A stretch of 64,000 nucleotides of DNA from Escherichia phage vB_EcoM_G5211: the sequence record MK327947.1. The stretch is one strand, 5' to 3'. The notes beneath the pieces were generated by a model. That model ran no database searches. It worked only from the letters and a program-made list of their open reading frames with translations, and had not been told where the DNA came from. This document shows, one piece after another, positions 10,401 to 59,782 of this stretch. Each line of letters opens with the position of its first letter. The first letter of the stretch is position 1. Both the position numbers and the translations under genes were made by a program.

Positions 10401-10531
10401 TGAGTCCACTGTTTGACCAGTCGGCGGTAACATTCTCTATGTTCCGTGAGCTTGTGGATAAACGGTTGAAGGATAATATAGGGAATCCACGCGATCCGAA
10501 GAATCCGACACAGAGGAAAATTAATGGCTAA
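7445..10531 (+). CDS. 7: gp7 baseplate wedge protein
   Basis: 1028 aa (T4 gp7 about 1032 aa); synteny. Confidence 0.85.
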   Translation: MIKAPSVTSLTIEKLSANQAYITWDDVGENFFYFVELAETRTRDGEIIPVDELSWVNLGYTAEQNWFEDKNLFPEYYYKFRVAVAAEGFEQSKWVETEEFQTFKTNAYNFSMMREFNLANEFIKEKFTYDNREYVKFNTDLIQASLMKEDFVFSPEYANMTNISNYIVVDENFHEIQDHIEKVCTDINHTMLAEMNGVLYLFERFQPIVKVSNDKGQSWKAYKAFNDRVGNPVSRTCVYQSKTTTYVLGYDRIFYGRQASDTRWSADDVRFSDDTITFAKVGDENDLGFDVEVFGVFSRLTGDTTKYAEAMACSDDYLWVGAKDVIRRIRLKNTPVDTVQGSPTFGEKIFDPDVIRVTGNDKAVIQKMDVVDGKLLVFVTGEVKQRYQDPTKPENVVPSDDAGVYLIGSDGLSFQRVFGNTPQEREYIQHGFSNMSTNGDEVFISHYNHHFESILPDPETAEKYELGEAVKYSHEPTYLTDKKIHQTTFRASYDDLRIWELGPQAYYNEADYTWMRRNGVRVWITNDNRPLVVYPEVIYTQEVDTSGILDQNRINREVYDKGTVTCYLNNVKFEGFKQYASGVMFHKNTGEIIGFYQFNYRVRDQVGVYWKPTNVAFVAELQNQVREVPWVPVHYDREQDPDLRPLLNKMTPDSFLLENENFRKFSEYYLQFLSDGSGTYYNKLKNLIKNKYPREKDAYEYLWSEMNKRNIYADKNKRDAVVRFFESRKSDFYSTKGVEASYKFLFKLLYNEDVEIEVESQAGLEYDIVVSSTNIDEDIVGRTIYTPTGRANVTYLEREYEGGRLRWRVTIHNLIGRFEEGQVIKSEKTAFEGMILVGVRGKELLSSSIDYINRSRSQYTMKIKSALPVSRYANDVMRFVHPVGFGFIGVTLLTMFINSGLSMKHTETIIQSLKNYKFDSGLPSVYPDRVADLDVDGNIKKDPLTGKALYLTSPLIGDEFPVPPEYDQENSELFHGLKASERRFAMSPLFDQSAVTFSMFRELVDKRLKDNIGNPRDPKNPTQRKING

Positions 10532-11519
10532 TGAAAATAGTGTGATCTATCGCTCAATCATTACTAGTAAATTCAGAACGGAAAAACTTCTGAATTTCTA
10601 TAATTCTGTAGGCGATGGGGCAAATCAAATTACAATTTATGGAACGTTTGGACGTTCGGAGCCGTGGTCAGAAAACGAAAAAGAGGTGGGCTTTGCCCCA
10701 CCTTATCCGACCGATTCAACGGCTGGTGTTGTTGACATGTGGACCCATATGATGGGGGCGGTTAAGATTAACAAATCACTTCTTGATGCGGTTATCCCTC
10801 GTAAAGATTGGGGTGATACCGGACAGGATAACCCGCGCACATTCTTTATCAATGACATTGTTGTTGTCAACTCAGCACCATATAACCGAACTGATGTTGG
10901 TAGCGGCTGGATGGTGTATCGCGTAACCGATGTTCCTGATCGCGGTTACTGCTCGATTTCAAGCATTGACGCTAAAGTAGAGTGTTTGAAGTTGGGCGGA
11001 AAGTGGACACCCACTCATGAATCAATTGCGCCACCTGTAGGAAAGGGCGATTCTATTGATATGGGTGATGGGTATCGTTGGGAATATCTGTACACAATTC
11101 CACCTGATGCGGCGATCAACCGTTGCACCAATGAACATATTGTTGTACCGTTCCCCGATGAACTGCGACAAGATCCGGCGCGTTGGGGTTATGACAATGT
11201 GATCACCTGGTATAATGACTATAATCTGCTTTATCGGCTGAAAGTAGTAACTTTGCGTTTTCAGGCTTATATGGACTCTGCGCAATTCCCAACTACCGCG
11301 TTAGTGGGTAATACTGGTTTCCGTCAGTTAAGCATTATCCTTAACCCATTGGAAAAGAAAGCACGCCCTAGCGATCCAGACGTTAAAGCGGTTGAAGATA
11401 AGTACCGACCGCAAGACTTAGAGCCACACTCAGGCGAAATGATCTACATGGAAAACCGACAACCTATCGTTCGGTCATTAGATCAAACAGAACTTGTTTC
11501 TGTATTGTTTGAGTTCTAA
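10524..11519 (+). CDS. 8: gp8 baseplate wedge protein
   Basis: 331 aa (T4 gp8 about 334 aa); synteny. Confidence 0.8.
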   Translation: MANENSVIYRSIITSKFRTEKLLNFYNSVGDGANQITIYGTFGRSEPWSENEKEVGFAPPYPTDSTAGVVDMWTHMMGAVKINKSLLDAVIPRKDWGDTGQDNPRTFFINDIVVVNSAPYNRTDVGSGWMVYRVTDVPDRGYCSISSIDAKVECLKLGGKWTPTHESIAPPVGKGDSIDMGDGYRWEYLYTIPPDAAINRCTNEHIVVPFPDELRQDPARWGYDNVITWYNDYNLLYRLKVVTLRFQAYMDSAQFPTTALVGNTGFRQLSIILNPLEKKARPSDPDVKAVEDKYRPQDLEPHSGEMIYMENRQPIVRSLDQTELVSVLFEF

Positions 11520-11534
11520 GTGTATGATTTAAAA

Positions 11535-11562
11535 AGCCAATTCTAGAGAGTTGGCTTTTTCT
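11535..11562 (+). terminator. Rho-independent terminator after gene 8
   Basis: Hairpin agccaa-ttctagagag-ttggct followed by TTTTT. Confidence 0.65.
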
Positions 11563-11572
11563 ATTTTGGGTG

Positions 11573-11600
11573 TTGACAATCTTGTCTGATAAGGTATAAT
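11573..11600 (+). promoter_or_regulatory. Sigma70-type (early-like) promoter: TTGACA, 16-nt spacer, TATAAT
   Basis: Perfect -35 and -10 hexamers; RBS ggagg and ATG at 11630 downstream. Confidence 0.7.
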
Positions 11601-11629
11601 GCTCACATCTAAACAACGGAGGATAAATT

Positions 11630-11887
11630 ATGGCACGTCGTAAATTTACAGATAATTGTGAAGCAATTCAGGTATCCCCTTGCGGTTGGGATGTGATCGC
11701 GAACGGTGAAAAGATCGGAGAGATCATCGATCATACTCATTCATCACTAGCCGATTACACCGATGAACTATGGGAGGGTATCAACTTCATGAATGACACT
11801 AAACGATTCAAGACTATCGACGAAGCTATCTATTTTGTGTATAATCCAACTTTCGGTATGTGGGGAACTAGAAAATGGCACGCGTAA
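11630..11887 (+). CDS. Hypothetical protein (85 aa), first gene of inserted cassette
   Basis: ORF with RBS; overlaps next ORF; absent from T4 8-9 junction. Confidence 0.5.
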   Translation: MARRKFTDNCEAIQVSPCGWDVIANGEKIGEIIDHTHSSLADYTDELWEGINFMNDTKRFKTIDEAIYFVYNPTFGMWGTRKWHA

Positions 11888-12207
11888 ACATTAAACTACA
11901 CTACACAATGGGTAAAGCTAAGTTCCCAATGCAAAAGCATTACTATGGTCTACGTGCACAAGATCCAAAACTCTATGGTACTCATTGGTTTTGTAAACAT
12001 GATAACCAATGGCACACATACGAAGAAATGCACGAGATGATGAAACAGGGTATTGAATTGAGTTATTCTAATTATGACCATCGTATAACTTGCATTCGAA
12101 AATTGAAACGATGGATTCGTAAGAATCCGCAATTTAAAAACTTTGTGTTCTTTATGTCTCATGTTTATTTGGGACATAGCGTTACCGTCACAGCAAAGGT
12201 TAAATAA
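11875..12207 (+). CDS. Hypothetical protein (110 aa), second gene of inserted cassette
   Basis: ORF with RBS gggga; stop overlaps next start (TAATG). Confidence 0.5.
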   Translation: MARVNIKLHYTMGKAKFPMQKHYYGLRAQDPKLYGTHWFCKHDNQWHTYEEMHEMMKQGIELSYSNYDHRITCIRKLKRWIRKNPQFKNFVFFMSHVYLGHSVTVTAKVK

Positions 12208-13046
12208 TGGCACGACTTTCTAAACAAGAACAAAAATTACACGATCGGGTGATGGAGTTGATTAATTCAGATCGCCCATTGACATATGAAGAAAAAGAAT
12301 TTTGCTATAATAACTATCATGGCGATGGTCTAGGCGGTTCAGGTGCATTCTTTACCCCAGAAGGGCTTGCATGGGATTTTACCATCGATGCACATTGCAC
12401 AGGAAAAGTATTAGATCTTTGTGCTGGGATCGGTCGCTTATCTTTTTGTATGTTACATCGTTGTAAGCCAGAAAAGATCGTATGCGTCGAACTCAATCCA
12501 GAATTTGCGCGGATTGGCAAGCGACTATTACCGGAGGCAGAATGGATCACCAGCGATGTATTCGAATTTGAGTCAAACGAAAAATTCGATGTGGTGATCA
12601 GCAATCCACCCTTCGGGAAAATCAATACAACCGACACAAAGGATGTATTTGAGTACACTGGTGGCGAATTTGAATTTAAGGTTATGACATTAGGCCAGAA
12701 GTTTGCCGATGTAGGTTATTTTATTGTTCCTTCTGGTTCCGCTGGTTTTGCCTATTCCGGCAGACCTTATTATGACGGGACCATGAAGTCTAATAAATAT
12801 CTAAAATGGAGCAAACAAACTGGTTTGGTGACTTATGCCGGATGTGGGATCGATACATCAATCTATCGTGATGAATGGCATAGTACCAACGTTTTAACAG
12901 AAGTGGTTGAGGTTCGGTATTACGAGAAAGAAGCCGTAGAAGCGCCTAAATCACGTCCTAACGAACAAATAGAAGAAAGTAAGGAGATTACCTTACCGAA
13001 ACAGGAAAGCGAGTCTGGGACGCTCTCAGATTTGTTTGACATTTAA
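12207..13046 (+). CDS. Putative gamma-class amino-methyltransferase (likely DNA N6-adenine MTase)
   Basis: Motif X-like GAFFTPEG, motif I VLDLCAGIGRL, motif IV VISNPPFG in gamma order; 279 aa. Confidence 0.65.
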   Translation: MARLSKQEQKLHDRVMELINSDRPLTYEEKEFCYNNYHGDGLGGSGAFFTPEGLAWDFTIDAHCTGKVLDLCAGIGRLSFCMLHRCKPEKIVCVELNPEFARIGKRLLPEAEWITSDVFEFESNEKFDVVISNPPFGKINTTDTKDVFEYTGGEFEFKVMTLGQKFADVGYFIVPSGSAGFAYSGRPYYDGTMKSNKYLKWSKQTGLVTYAGCGIDTSIYRDEWHSTNVLTEVVEVRYYEKEAVEAPKSRPNEQIEESKEITLPKQESESGTLSDLFDI

Positions 13047-13052
13047 TTATAA

Positions 13053-13077
13053 GCCGTCCTTGTGGACGGCTTTTTTG
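13053..13077 (+). terminator. Rho-independent terminator closing the inserted cassette
   Basis: Hairpin gccgtcc-ttgt-ggacggc followed by TTTTTT. Confidence 0.7.
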
Positions 13078-13086
13078 TATGTGTTT

Positions 13087-13094
13087 TATAAATA
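13087..13094 (+). promoter_or_regulatory. T4-type late promoter TATAAATA upstream of gene 9
   Basis: Exact TATAAATA about 28 nt upstream of ATG at 13122. Confidence 0.6.
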
Positions 13095-13121: not shown

Positions 13122-13976
13122 ATGGCACAAGTTCCAAAGAAAAGAATAGACACAGGTACTGTCGGCAATCCATCGACTGGCGATATCTTATATGATGGCG
13201 GTAATAAAATTAACGATAACTTTGATTCAATATATGACGCATTTGCTGATCAACGTCTAAAAGAGATTGATCATGGTGCTGGTCGAATGGTTATTCATGC
13301 CACGGGATACTATCAGAAACACCCACGACAAAGCTATGCAGGGTCGGCGGTAGAGATTGGTAGCTTACATGATATTGACACAACTCAAGGCGCATTAATA
13401 GCAATTCTTCCTAAAGCTAAAGTCGGTGAGGGTGTTGTGTTCATAAATAGTAACGGTAGCTTTTCGGCAACAACACCACTAAACATTAGAACTCAAGCAG
13501 GAGATTCTATTAGCGGGTATTCCGGTGACGCGGTAATAACTCAACCTTTCTCAAAAGTCACCGTCTGGTGTACTGCCGTCGAAGGTAGTAGAGTTACCTG
13601 GCGGCTAGGCATCGAAAGTATGTTTACCGACACAACCACACCACTAGATAGGACAGTTAATGTAACTGGAGTTGCAACCAACGTTGCTATTGCAGCAAAA
13701 ACAGAATATGTATCAATTAAACTATTAACAACCGCTAGCAATACGACGGGTTCAAAAATGCGCTCAAGCGAAACTCTATTGATGATTGATGCCAGAGCCG
13801 GAAAAGTTTACGCGACAGAATATGCGGTTTTACAGAAAACAGAAGACGAATTATACACGGTTCGTTATTTCATTGGTTCCGGCGATAAAGTATATGCAGA
13901 GTATAAGGCTACTGGCGAAAATATTCGTTTAGCAGTTAAAGCCACAGACACTATTAAAATCGGGGTTGCTACATGA
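13122..13976 (+). CDS. 9: gp9 baseplate wedge / long tail fiber socket protein
   Basis: 284 aa (T4 gp9 288 aa); synteny. Confidence 0.8.
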   Translation: MAQVPKKRIDTGTVGNPSTGDILYDGGNKINDNFDSIYDAFADQRLKEIDHGAGRMVIHATGYYQKHPRQSYAGSAVEIGSLHDIDTTQGALIAILPKAKVGEGVVFINSNGSFSATTPLNIRTQAGDSISGYSGDAVITQPFSKVTVWCTAVEGSRVTWRLGIESMFTDTTTPLDRTVNVTGVATNVAIAAKTEYVSIKLLTTASNTTGSKMRSSETLLMIDARAGKVYATEYAVLQKTEDELYTVRYFIGSGDKVYAEYKATGENIRLAVKATDTIKIGVAT

Positions 13977-19651: not shown

Positions 19652-20584
19652 ATGTCAGGATATGTAACCAATAACCCAAGAGAATTAAAAGACGCTATTC
19701 TGCGTCGTTTAGGCGCACCAGTAATTAACGTAGAAGTCACAGAAGACCAGATTTACGATTGTATTCAGAGAGCACTAGAACTCTATGGGGAATATCATTT
19801 CGATGGTGTGAATAAAGGATATAAAGTATTTCGTGTTAGTGCAGAGCAAGCGCAACACGGGGTATTTGATTTAAGCGATTCTGGAGTATTCGCAGTAACT
19901 AAAATAATTCGAACAAACGTAGGTAGCGCGGCTACGATGGATGGTACTGCCGTTTATCCGTGGTTTACTGACTTTCTGTTGGGTTTAGCGGGTGTAAATG
20001 GCGGTTTAGGATCTGGCTGTAGTAAATTTTATGGTCCAAATGCAATGGGCGGTGATCTGGGATATTTCGAACAGCTTATGAGCTATCGCGCAACTATGCA
20101 AAATATGCTCAATCCGCTTCCAGATTATTGGTATAATAGCGCAAACGGACAACTTAAGATTACAGGAAACTTCCGAGAAGGTGATCTCATTGTTGTTGAA
20201 TTATATGTTAAAAGCTATATAGACGTTCCTGATATGATCGGTGCGGTTGCTGGTTATGCTCATGCGGGAGGATGTTCTACCGCTGGCGGGATTAGCGCCG
20301 TTTATGATAACCCAACTGCTGGTTTAAGCGGGATTGTTGCTGGCATGGGACCGATCCGTGATAACAAGCAGGGCGCATATAATAACCGTTGGGTTAAAGA
20401 CATGGCAACCGCTTTCACTAAGGAGGTGTGGGGGTCCATCATGGCTAAACATCAAGGTCTGCAATTACCCGGAGGTGTCACTGTTGATGGTATCCGAATC
20501 ATTGAAGAAGCACGCGCCGACATTGAGAAATTGCGACAAGAACTACTTGACTTAGATCCACCATTTGGTATACTAATGATTTGA
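19652..20584 (+). CDS. 13: gp13 neck protein
   Basis: 310 aa (T4 gp13 309 aa); synteny. Confidence 0.8.
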
Positions 20585-53612: not shown

Positions 53613-53825
53613 TTATAATGCACCATCGAGCAATTGCTCTAAGGTGTATCCTGAATAGTCTTTTTCAATCAGGATATATTTTCCTACTCGTTTAATACAA
53701 CCACGCATTTCAACGTATTCTGCGTAGTTGATGGTACGAGTTGTTCCATCTTCCAGTAATGCAGTACCGATTTCGTTAATGCGGTCATAAGTTACGTCGG
53801 TAATGATGATTTCGATGTTAGCCAT
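53613..53825 (-). CDS. Hypothetical early protein (70 aa)
   Basis: RBS aaggag; own promoter cassette upstream. Confidence 0.5.
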   Translation of the reverse strand: MANIEIIITDVTYDRINEIGTALLEDGTTRTINYAEYVEMRGCIKRVGKYILIEKDYSGYTLEQLLDGAL

Positions 53826-54108: not shown

Positions 54109-54138
54109 ATTATAGGGGATCTCCGACCCCCCTGTCAA
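54109..54138 (-). promoter_or_regulatory. Early promoter cassette (TTGACA, 18 nt, TATAAT) with GATC palindrome in spacer
   Basis: tgtcaa at 54133-54138, attata at 54109-54114; spacer ggggatctccgacccccc. Confidence 0.65.
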
Positions 54139-54145
54139 CAACTTT

Positions 54146-54664
54146 TTAGTTATTTTTTAATTGCTCATCTTGCAATAGGGCAATCACATGCTGGCGATGT
54201 TCTTCCGATTGAGGAACACCGAAAAAGTTTGTTTTGTAGAAATACTCTAATCGGTCTTCTCGTGTGCTCTCTTCCATCATGATCGCGGGTAGTCCGAGAT
54301 TTCGGAAACGTCGCTTTTCTGCTGGCGTAAAATCACTGTAATACAACATAGAATCATCATTACCAGCAATGCTAAACTCATCATTCATGAAGGAGAATAT
54401 TGCGTTTAAACGCTGTTTACCGTCCACGATTTCGATCTCATAGCGAGAGCCATCATCAATCTTAGCCATTGCGATAGCACCAACCGGAAAATCATTAATC
54501 AGGTTTTCGATAAACATACGTTTGTTTTCGGTGTCCCATACCAAAGGACGCTGATAATCTGGGTTCATGTTGATATAGCCATCTTCTAACCATGCATCAT
54601 AAACAGAGATGACAAAGTTTTTAGTATTGGTATAGTAACGGCGTTTAGGCGTTAAACGGTTCAT
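54146..54664 (-). CDS. DUF262 / ParB-like nuclease-domain protein (DGQQR-type motif)
   Basis: PDYQRPLVWD and IVDGKQRLNAI motifs; ATG at 54664 immediately follows upstream stop (alternative start 54700); about 172 aa. Confidence 0.6.
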   Translation of the reverse strand: MNRLTPKRRYYTNTKNFVISVYDAWLEDGYINMNPDYQRPLVWDTENKRMFIENLINDFPVGAIAMAKIDDGSRYEIEIVDGKQRLNAIFSFMNDEFSIAGNDDSMLYYSDFTPAEKRRFRNLGLPAIMMEESTREDRLEYFYKTNFFGVPQSEEHRQHVIALLQDEQLKNN

Positions 54665-54665
54665 G

Positions 54666-54995
54666 TTATAGTCTCCTGAATGGATCATCACGTAAATCAA
54701 TATCTTTTAAGAACTCATCCCATGAATGGCGGATATTGTTCTTAATTCTCCAGATAAGCGCAGGGATTGAACGCTCTCCCATCTGGAAGTAAGGATCATA
54801 TGATCCGTATGCCCAATATGCTACTACAATTCCACAGTCAGCGCAATAGTATTCTATTTCACTTGCTGGCGACCAAAGTCCATCAATATGATCAGTGATC
54901 TTGCTTTCGATGTTATGACTATGACAATCAGGGCAACGGATGCAATGACCTTGTTTATCGTAATTTGACGTTAGAGAATACTTAAACAATCTCAT
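54666..54995 (-). CDS. Cys-rich zinc-ribbon protein (109 aa)
   Basis: CIRCPDC and CADCG Cys pairs; start overlaps upstream stop (TAATG). Confidence 0.5.
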   Translation of the reverse strand: MRLFKYSLTSNYDKQGHCIRCPDCHSHNIESKITDHIDGLWSPASEIEYYCADCGIVVAYWAYGSYDPYFQMGERSIPALIWRIKNNIRHSWDEFLKDIDLRDDPFRRL

Positions 54996-55711
54996 TATAG
55001 ATCCTTATTGGCTTCAAATACTGCCTTTGCGAATCCTCGCGGGGTAAGTGACCTGATAGTCTTTGTTCTGGTTCCTTTCCCGCCTAGCTTAGAATGCTGT
55101 TTACTGTACCCTTTATTAATCTGCAACGGTTTCTTTTCTGGCATTATAAAGCCTTGTCCGGTCCATAAGCAAGTCTTTTTCGGGTACATATCACGGGCGG
55201 CAATATACTCAGGAAACGTAGGATGCTTATCATCTTCCGGCAAATAACCGCCATATTCCCACGGATGGAACATGTAATCAGGCTTACGCCACATACTAGA
55301 GATAACGCTTACAGGATTCTCTATCATGTAGGGAACTCCTAGCCATTCACCCAAATAAGCGGTTATTTTAGCTGTCCGTACATCATGAACTTGAATCAAT
55401 GGTCCTTGTTCTCGTTTCTTTCGTTCAAAGTGTGCAGCGCCACTAACAGCTAAATTGGTGCACGGTGGGAATGCAAAGATAATATCCGGTTTCCCCCATT
55501 CAAGGTCCATTGCTCTTTCCAGCCAGTTCAAATCAATCCAGGTGTTTACATAAGTAATGTTTGGATGTTCAAATCTGGTATTATACTTTTTGTATGTACC
55601 GTGGTCGGCGTCATCCGCATTAAAGCAGACTACCTTATGACCTGCTTTAGCCCATTCTAGCCCCATTATCCCCGATCCGTCAAAGTTGCAGAATATTAAT
55701 TTTTGTTTCAT
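54995..55711 (-). CDS. Compact DNA cytosine-5 methyltransferase-like protein
   Basis: Motif I-like FDGSGIMG, motif IV PC (FAFPPCTN), motif VI-like IENPV, C-terminal RSLTPRGFAKAV; 238 aa, short for a canonical C5-MTase. Confidence 0.5.
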   Translation of the reverse strand: MKQKLIFCNFDGSGIMGLEWAKAGHKVVCFNADDADHGTYKKYNTRFEHPNITYVNTWIDLNWLERAMDLEWGKPDIIFAFPPCTNLAVSGAAHFERKKREQGPLIQVHDVRTAKITAYLGEWLGVPYMIENPVSVISSMWRKPDYMFHPWEYGGYLPEDDKHPTFPEYIAARDMYPKKTCLWTGQGFIMPEKKPLQINKGYSKQHSKLGGKGTRTKTIRSLTPRGFAKAVFEANKDL

Positions 55712-59752: not shown

Positions 59753-59782
59753 ATTATAGGGGATCTCCCGATCCCCTGTCAA
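59753..59782 (-). promoter_or_regulatory. Early promoter cassette (TTGACA, 18 nt, TATAAT) with GATC palindrome
   Basis: Spacer ggggatctcccgatcccc, identical to the 56492-56508 spacer core. Confidence 0.65.

Follow-up and report, generated by a model that had tools for sequence, protein, structure and literature searches.

A putatively clamp-tethered DNA methyltransferase in a PeSL-type early unit between baseplate genes 8 and 9 of Escherichia phage vB_EcoM_G5211

Phages RB49 and phi1 carry PeSL (promoter-early stem-loop) elements, in which a sigma-70 consensus promoter and a stem-loop lie in AT-rich intergenic DNA upstream of novel open reading frames (ORFs) (Arbiol et al. 2010, PMC2839356). 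The stem-loop was proposed to keep early transcription out of late virion genes (PMC2839356, PMC4122927). We analyzed a stretch of 64,000 nucleotides (nt) of Escherichia phage vB_EcoM_G5211 (MK327947.1), referred to below as the window, in which a PeSL-type unit of three ORFs lies between the late baseplate genes 8 and 9. The third ORF encodes a protein of 279 amino acids (aa). This protein is probably a gamma-class, most likely N6-adenine, DNA methyltransferase whose gp43-like C-terminal tail would recruit it to the gp45 sliding clamp.

The unit belongs to the same phage group as the described PeSL cassettes. As in those, a promoter and an adjacent terminator would drive non-core ORFs and block read-through between early and late genes. 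Differences are that the present element lies within a conserved virion module, not in a hyperplastic region, and that the downstream edge of the unit is a terminator plus a late promoter, not a second PeSL. The cassette itself is not new, because the PeSL element has been published (PMC2839356) and the methyltransferase was listed in 2006, when its homologue RB49ORF143w was included among novel ORFs, with a weak match to "Methyltransferase small domain" (PMC1524935).

The described gp45 ligands, gp43, gp55, gp33 and T4 DNA ligase (PMC2988020, PMC6212786), carry a short hydrophobic/acidic peptide on a flexible, hypervariable linker, and the tail of the 279-aa protein has the same design. A difference is that no methyltransferase is among the ligands described in these papers, and binding is here predicted from sequence. 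The T4 ligase–gp45 interaction was also first spotted by resemblance to the gp43 tail, and was then verified by size-exclusion chromatography, isothermal titration calorimetry and crystallography (PMC6212786). Outside phages, DNMT1 is a DNA methyltransferase whose clamp-binding motif, for PCNA, links methylation to newly replicated DNA (PMC9690074). DNMT1 is a large, multidomain C5-cytosine enzyme with a maintenance role, whereas the phage protein is a predicted small amino-methyltransferase with its motif at the C-terminus. MuC and Mor of phage Mu are mobile-element proteins with terminal QxDLF-type clamp motifs that couple a DNA transaction to replication, but they are transcription factors, not methyltransferases (PMC12867686).

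Phage orphan methyltransferases are common, and how they match fast phage replication is poorly understood, as is the protection or marking of C-containing T4-like phage DNA. T4 and RB49 Dam are, like the present enzyme, phage-encoded, without a cognate nuclease and presumed to be anti-restriction. The present enzyme differs in being of gamma class (NPPF, FFTP) and putatively clamp-tailed, whereas Dam is tail-less; with Dam also encoded by RB49, it is the second methyltransferase of its genome. Its best profile matches include DarB-like and polyvalent domains and Mad2 of the MADS system, span motif X to motif IV, and are paralleled by Pseudomonas relatives in islands with ART-PolyVal. Those matches are domains of very large proteins or defence components, whereas here a stand-alone core of about 250 residues bears a tail. 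In a search covering mostly non-subscription literature, no paper came up in which a clamp-binding motif was tied to a DNA methyltransferase of a bacterium or phage, and clamp tethering throughout a large methyltransferase family of mobile elements seems not to have been reported. If true, it would be the first counterpart of DNMT1–PCNA coupling that we found in a prokaryote or virus and a new client class for the sliding-clamp tool-belt, and beta-clamp motifs on relatives would extend the idea beyond Krischvirus.

The C-terminal tail and the end of gp43

The model of the protein comprises a core of about 250 residues, a linker of some 20 residues predicted to be disordered, and a hydrophobic/acidic C-terminal peptide of 8 residues that appears to copy that of gp43. 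The features are:

12207..13046, + strand: predicted 279-aa orphan gamma-class N6-adenine-type DNA methyltransferase, homologue of RB49ORF143w
12966..13019, + strand: disordered, fast-evolving linker, about residues 254–271 (low pLDDT; sequence and length vary among homologues)
13020..13043, + strand: C-terminal peptide TLSDLFDI, a putative gp45 sliding-clamp-binding motif (likeness to the gp43 end)

In the AlphaFold 2 (AF2) model, the core was confident, residues 254–273 had pLDDT below 50, and residues 273–276 formed a short helix. Alignment indicated that the versions from T4-like phages carry a C-terminal extension and that those from enterobacterial prophages do not.

The 3.7 kb around the cassette are 100% identical to Escherichia phage vB_EcoM_G37-3 (MK327941.1; Krischvirus, RB49-like). 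The methyltransferase ends in ...ESGTLSDLFDI, and gp43 of G37-3 ends in ...KVASLTDLFDI, which is identical in RB49. The gp43 tail SLTDLFDI occupies the same position as EKASLDFLFG of T4 gp43, a known gp45-binding peptide (PMC6212786, PMC2988020). We scanned the C-termini of 1447 stop-to-stop segments of at least 40 aa, taken from the window and 89 kb of RB49, for matches to SLTDLFDI. Only gp43 (8/8) and the methyltransferase (6/8, with S/T swaps at both mismatches) matched, and the next best segment reached 4/8. Among other C-termini, gp55 of G37-3 ends in SLDQFYEIEN and gp33 of RB49 in NTLDI. Six-frame segments of at least 80 aa were then searched for [ST]LxD[LFM][FY] at any position. The pattern occurred only in gp43, in the methyltransferase and at residues 12–17 of RNase H (ATLNDFFDD).

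The RNase H match, near the N-terminus of the RB49 protein (L011, about 19700–19777, − strand), was the only other gp43-type match in about 153 kb. It fits a putative N-terminal gp45-binding site. A 70-aa ORF at 53613–53825 (−), which ends in TLEQLLDGAL (YSGYTLEQLLDGAL), was considered as another clamp ligand; it matched a loose pattern weakly and had no Pfam hit.

The tails of the methyltransferase and gp43 differ in synonymous codon choice, and the sequences 3' of them are unrelated. These differences ruled out that the methyltransferase tail was recently copied as DNA from the 3' end of gene 43, indicating that the similarity is maintained at the protein level. In homologues 64–70% identical to the window protein, the linker could not be aligned, and the tails read TLTDLFDI, SLSMFDI and TLDFVDFSEI. 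This pattern mirrors that of gp55, in which a hypervariable linker precedes a conserved epitope (PMC2988020). Thus two sequence marks of a gp45 ligand, a terminal hydrophobic/acidic peptide like the cognate gp43 end and a flexible linker variable in sequence and length, were both found in the methyltransferase.

The peptides by which gp43, gp55 and gp33 bind the clamp can replace one another and have sites on gp45 in common (PMC2988020). The tail might then mainly compete with these proteins for gp45 and regulate replication or late transcription, with methylation secondary or lost. This is exceedingly improbable given that the catalytic motifs are all invariant across the family and that relatives from non-T4 elements relying on the beta clamp have like tails.

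Clamp-type motifs across the family

Homologues 45–50% identical to the methyltransferase were found in KP15, RB16, GAP161, GAP32, Aeromonas phages, phiM12 and others, amounting to 289 phage records. In KP15, RB16 and GAP161, the gene lies in the interval from replication gene 41 to replication gene 61, and gene 43 is a few kb away. Their methyltransferases carry a Pro/Glu linker and the tail [DN]LFTF[TR]IE, and their gp43 proteins end in SLN[DT]LFGD(D/G)W. We regard this case as suggestive only, because the [DN]LF core alone is shared with gp43. A scan of this clade with [DNT]LF[GT][DF] was circular, as the pattern had been derived from the two proteins that it then found. Overall, covariation of the methyltransferase and gp43 tails was strong in Krischvirus and reduced to the [DN]LF core in KP15, RB16 and GAP161, and the tail was absent in other clades. 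The extension of EniLVp02 has no clamp-type motif, and phiM12 and GAP32 have no comparable tail. In Citrobacter and Salmonella, bacterial homologues (54–61% identical, 238–241 aa) are located at prophage or island edges. Since some homologues have no tail, tethering would be an add-on and not a requirement.

A search of 1.84 billion cluster representatives returned 732 relatives, and motifs were counted in the 141 near-full-length sequences among the best 150. A motif of the Qx(1-3)LF or QLxLxL type was present in the last 12 residues of 37 of the 141 (26%), compared with 4 of 804 background ORF C-termini and 0.1% of interior 12-mers from these same proteins. The strict form Q[LMFIVA]x[LM]F was found at the end of 20 of the 141 (14%), and in 0/804 background C-termini and 0/34,916 interior 12-mers. 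The background sets are modest in size and the effect is very large. Pseudomonas and Burkholderia relatives had the strict motif in the last 12 residues in 58 of 118 cases. The Pseudomonas tails listed end in QLSLFDAA, after Lys/Ala/Pro-rich linkers that differ widely in length and sequence. QL[SD]LF is the consensus beta-sliding-clamp-binding motif (PMC12867686). The enrichment at C-termini, together with the gp43-like tail in Krischvirus, suggested that the family recurrently bears a predicted terminal clamp-binding peptide of a type fitting the available clamp. The distribution fits a beta-type peptide where host machinery replicates the element, and a gp43-like peptide in Krischvirus, which encodes gp45.

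Motifs of the beta type in the wider family, for example QLSLFDAA, and the similarity of LSDLF to QL[SD]LF, could mean that the window protein binds the host beta clamp (DnaN) instead of gp45 and acts on DNA with host clamps. Its tail (TLSDLF) has no leading Q, however, and is one residue longer than the QL[SD]LF pentapeptide. It is also closest to the tail of its own gp43, which is homologous to the gp45-binding peptide of T4 and RB69. T4-type phages replicate with their own clamp. On these grounds, binding to DnaN is quite unlikely.

The resemblance to gp43 could also be functionless, and the enzyme an ordinary, untethered orphan DNA methyltransferase that finds DNA by diffusion like T4 Dam. 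Tail-less homologues are indeed common (the 238–241-aa proteins of Citrobacter and Salmonella prophages, and those of Aeromonas phage P19, phiM12 and GAP32), and RB49 Dam has no clamp-type tail. Chance resemblance is nevertheless hard to reconcile with a 6/8 match at the exact C-terminus, with S/T swaps, that is unique among 1447 ORF segments, with a tail retained while the linker diverges, or with a roughly 50-fold enrichment of C-terminal clamp motifs in the family. We consider an untethered enzyme fairly unlikely.

Two observations on relatives are added. A QLSLFDAA-tailed homologue, which occurs on 825 Pseudomonas contigs, is followed directly downstream by an ATP-dependent DNA ligase in a Pseudomonas island (L025, 9001–11455). 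The same island encodes ART-PolyVal, NA37, DUF6283 and DUF8359 proteins and has the look of a replication or anti-defence region of a mobile element. In Dickeya phage JA29 (L019, 2501–3670), the homologous core is extended by fusion with a further C-terminal domain, about 140 residues long. Two further genes annotated as methyltransferases lie 3' of the fused homologue, forming a methyltransferase cluster.

The methyltransferase core and its substrate

The core carries three conserved motifs, for which conservation was taken from alignments of 26–33 homologues:

12348..12359, + strand: motif X, FFTP, residues 48–51 (invariant or nearly so)
12408..12440, + strand: motif I, VLDLCAGIGRL, residues 68–78, predicted to bind S-adenosylmethionine (SAM) (L71–G76 and L78 invariant; V68, L69, D70 and R77 vary)
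12603..12614, + strand: motif IV, NPPF, residues 133–136, predicted to be catalytic (N133, P134 and F136 invariant; P135 in at least 90% of homologues)

F48 of FFTP and P135 of NPPF are nearly invariant. The order X, I, IV is that of the gamma class, as had been proposed from the letters alone, and the fold prediction and profile matches agree with it. The predicted structure is a SAM methyltransferase of class I Rossmann fold, with solved N6-adenine methyltransferases as its closest counterparts, and the best low-rmsd (root-mean-square deviation) Foldseek matches of the model were M.TaqI and CamA. The sequence-only reading had named hidden Markov model profiles of the N6-adenine type as a check, and the outcome was divided. 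Eco57I passed its Pfam cutoff (29.0 bits, cutoff 25.3), and N6_Mtase stayed below (16.7 bits, cutoff 20.4). The generic family MTS scored 38.5 bits (cutoff 23), and Methyltransf_25 was also above its cutoff. The best match outside PHROG was the mad2 DNA methyltransferase of PADLOC (E = 4e-17); Type II and orphan DNA methyltransferases came next, with alignments starting at FFTP. The matching PHROGs 10089, 11801 and 1685 include methyltransferase domains of DarB-like and polyvalent proteins.

No restriction nuclease or specificity subunit was found beside the gene, whose neighbors are two small ORFs and baseplate genes, and no nuclease adjoins the homologues in KP15, RB16 and prophages. The enzyme was therefore classified as an orphan, in agreement with the sequence-only reading. 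On motif, fold, profile and context evidence alone, DNA is likely, though not certain, to be its substrate. The claim that it acts on DNA gains good support from the putative clamp-binding tails, and this support is indirect. The sequence-only reading had passed over the tail, which we regard as the most telling feature of the protein.

GenBank names for the protein vary (putative methyltransferase, DNA methyltransferase, release factor glutamine methyltransferase, hypothetical). Some agree with an RNA or protein methyltransferase of the RsmC, RsmD, PrmC or METTL5 kind that modifies the host translation apparatus. Searches of PDB with the single sequence and with profiles gave weak, mixed RNA and DNA methyltransferase matches that did not settle the substrate. 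The NCBIfam equivalogs, however, scored far below their cutoffs (PrmC 37.5 vs 199.1 bits; RsmC 29.2 vs 295; L3 Gln methyltransferase 28.9 vs 229.7). The FFTP motif X and the Eco57I, mad2 and Type II matches favor DNA enzymes, the gene lies among replication genes in KP15 and RB16, and clamp-binding tails are sensible only on a DNA-associated enzyme. An RNA or protein substrate is thus very unlikely. The database names "release factor glutamine methyltransferase" and "rRNA guanine-N2-methyltransferase-like" appear misleading, and we correct them here. A terminal clamp motif would also offer a sequence rule for telling DNA-directed from RNA-directed members in ambiguous small methyltransferase families.

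For a clamp-tethered DNA methyltransferase, we infer gp45 binding, adenine-N6 chemistry at a target sequence in DNA, and an anti-restriction benefit. Host sigma-70 RNA polymerase would transcribe the unit early, terminators would insulate it from the surrounding late baseplate operon, and gene 9 would restart at a late promoter of its own; the sequence signals for these events are in place. After gp45 has been put on replicating DNA by the clamp loader of the phage, the methyltransferase tail would dock in the ligand pocket of the clamp. Tethering would keep a small enzyme with no target-recognition domain on new DNA, with or behind the replisome, and could raise the rate and completeness of phage DNA methylation before packaging. 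The probable benefit would be protection of the unmodified-cytosine phage genome from restriction in the next host.

Several points weigh against this reading. Similarity in sequence and fold to the RNA methyltransferases METTL5, PH1948, Erm, KsgA and RsmC is about as strong as that to DNA methyltransferases. The protein has no separate target-recognition domain; after motif IV come about 100 residues of conserved loops and strands, then the disordered linker. Highly conserved loops after motif IV and the lack of a target-recognition domain would also fit a fixed non-DNA substrate. Tail-less homologues occur in enterobacterial prophages and in the T4-like Aeromonas phage P19, and the KP15-clade tail is like its gp43 tail in the [DN]LF core only. 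In the literature searched, mostly non-subscription, no methylome, biochemical or functional study of this gene or family turned up, nor any experiment on DNA methylation or clamp binding by a family member. By high-performance liquid chromatography and mass spectrometry (HPLC/MS), DNA from Krischvirus TB34 reportedly contained no modified nucleosides; that study does not take up adenine methylation. RB49 DNA is cut by DraI, HpaII and NheI. DraI is sensitive to N6-methyladenine. Because of this cleavage and the TB34 result, dense or non-specific methylation is unlikely.

Clamp tethering might also give spatial specificity. Only phage-replicated DNA would then be methylated and host DNA left unmarked, so that, in a T4-like phage without hydroxymethylcytosine, methylation would act as a chemical self label that could be read by the phage's own nucleases or packaging, with progeny also shielded from restriction. 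RB49 retains denA/EndoII, a candidate host-DNA-degrading reader of such a label. We consider a self label unlikely; if true, it would establish a class, so far unrecognized, of DNA methyltransferases of prokaryotes and mobile elements that are clamp-tethered and coupled to replication, in analogy with DNMT1 and PCNA.

A minus-strand trio of the window was noted separately. It encodes a 238-aa protein with no Pfam hit (54995–55711), a 109-aa zinc-ribbon protein (54666–54995) and a 184-aa GmrSD_N/DUF262 protein (54146–54700; Pfam E = 6e-20). Inspection by eye showed motifs in the 238-aa protein that resemble those of C5-cytosine methyltransferases (FDGSGIMG, FPPCTNLAVSG). An unexplained cytosine modification was reported for Krischvirus SAP and not for the 99.96%-identical TB34 (PMC13390438). 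The trio may bear on this modification.

The early unit and its two small ORFs

Between gp8 and gp9, a terminator is followed by a sigma-70 promoter and three ORFs that overlap, and then by another terminator and the late promoter of gene 9. Besides the methyltransferase gene, the features are:

10524..11519, + strand: gene 8, baseplate wedge subunit, upstream flank (Pfam Phage-Gp8, E = 1.4e-143; PHROG 977)
11531..11560, + strand: rho-independent terminator, the stem-loop half of the PeSL (13-bp stem, then a T run; −15.6 kcal/mol, z −3.7)
11573..11600, + strand: early promoter with the sigma-70 consensus TTGACA-16-TATAAT, forming the promoter half of the PeSL (12/12 match)
11618..11623, + strand: Shine-Dalgarno GGAGGA of the first ORF (read from the sequence)
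11630..11887, + strand: 85-aa ORF, function unassigned, phrog_16603, first gene of a mobile two-gene module (ORF call, PHROG match)
11875..12207, + strand: 110-aa ORF, function unassigned, phrog_12630, second gene of the two-gene module (ORF call, PHROG match)
13051..13072, + strand: rho-independent terminator closing the early unit (9-bp stem with 6 G-C pairs, then T6; −16.5 kcal/mol, z −5.2)
13087..13094, + strand: TATAAATA, T4-type late promoter of gene 9, directly after the second terminator (read from the sequence)
13122..13976, + strand: gene 9, baseplate wedge tail-fibre connector, downstream flank (Pfam T4_gp9_10_N, E = 5.8e-41)

All three ORFs start with MAR and overlap by 13 nt (first pair) and 1 nt (second pair, TAATG). 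The sequence-only reading had described three such ORFs as an insertion relative to T4, with an early-type promoter of their own and terminators on both sides. The comparison bore this out: genes 8 and 9 are 63 bp apart in T4, the promoter matches the consensus at all 12 positions, and both hairpins are stable and followed by U-tracts, which makes the unit self-contained in transcription. We take TATAAATA to be the T4 late-promoter consensus.

The PeSL arrangement, a sigma-70 promoter with a stem-loop in AT-rich intergenic DNA upstream of non-core ORFs, is present at the upstream edge. No second PeSL was found at the downstream boundary, which has the terminator and the late promoter TATAAATA and no early promoter. 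Excision as a PeSL mini-circle is for that reason not obviously possible. Perfect TTGACA-16-TATAAT promoters occur eight times in the window, versus 0.13 expected from shuffles, and have in common a CACACAT-like start region 3' of the −10 box. The excess and the shared start region indicated a real promoter family.

The same gp8-to-gp9 layout was found in at least 57 Krischvirus genomes, and the 3.7 kb around the cassette have 95–97% identity with RB49, Phi1, JSE and about 55 further Krischvirus genomes. No near-identical DNA was found in E. coli genomes. In three divergent RB49-like metagenomic phages (L021, L022 and L023), the framing of terminator, TTGACA-N16-TATAAT promoter, terminator and late promoter is retained. 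L021 and L023 have the same promoter design at this junction, and in L021 the TATAAATA element likewise lies 3' of the terminator. The content differs: L021 and L022 have the methyltransferase alone between gp8 and gp9, and in L023 it is joined by an unrelated 154-aa ORF. Comparison of the junction in related phages, which the sequence-only reading had suggested, thus recovered the cassette within Krischvirus, but only the methyltransferase was kept in the divergent phages.

The small pair was found elsewhere. In the rV5-like phage HMD-6, homologues of the 85-aa ORF (69% identical) and the 110-aa ORF (59% identical) adjoin and overlap behind a terminator and a sigma-70-like promoter, with no methyltransferase. 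In KP15, the genes upstream of the methyltransferase are unrelated to either small ORF. One conserved unit of three genes was ruled out by the HMD-6 pair, the three divergent junctions and the KP15 neighbors, and a three-gene functional cassette, as first proposed, did not hold. Since each part occurs without the other, the methyltransferase is a conserved resident of the gp8–gp9 junction and the small pair an independent mobile module, by its distribution apparently an unrelated, hitch-hiking one.

The 110-aa ORF exists in Krischvirus as two allelic types, 98–100% or about 72% identical to the window copy. Homologues 57–59% identical occur in rV5-like phages and in records labelled Campylobacter phage. 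Both findings indicated horizontal exchange of this ORF. Pfam, NCBIfam and PADLOC gave nothing above noise for the 85-aa and 110-aa ORFs (a WWE match with E = 0.06 was disregarded). The 110-aa protein has only five homologue clusters, and its AF2 model (pLDDT 61) was unusable.

An intact 85-aa ORF is present in G37-3, Phi1 and the majority of Krischvirus genomes. The RefSeq record of RB49 (L001, 3438–3684) has it split into two small coding sequences, RB49p140 and RB49p141, which suggests a frameshift or a sequencing difference in that record. Two other perfect sigma-70 promoters of the window, at 54109–54138 (−) and 59753–59782 (−), contain a G/C-rich inverted repeat (GGGG..TCGGAGATCCCC) within the −35/−10 spacer. 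They belong to the PeSL subclass that has its stem-loop between the boxes, and both are followed by the same start region, CACACATACC.

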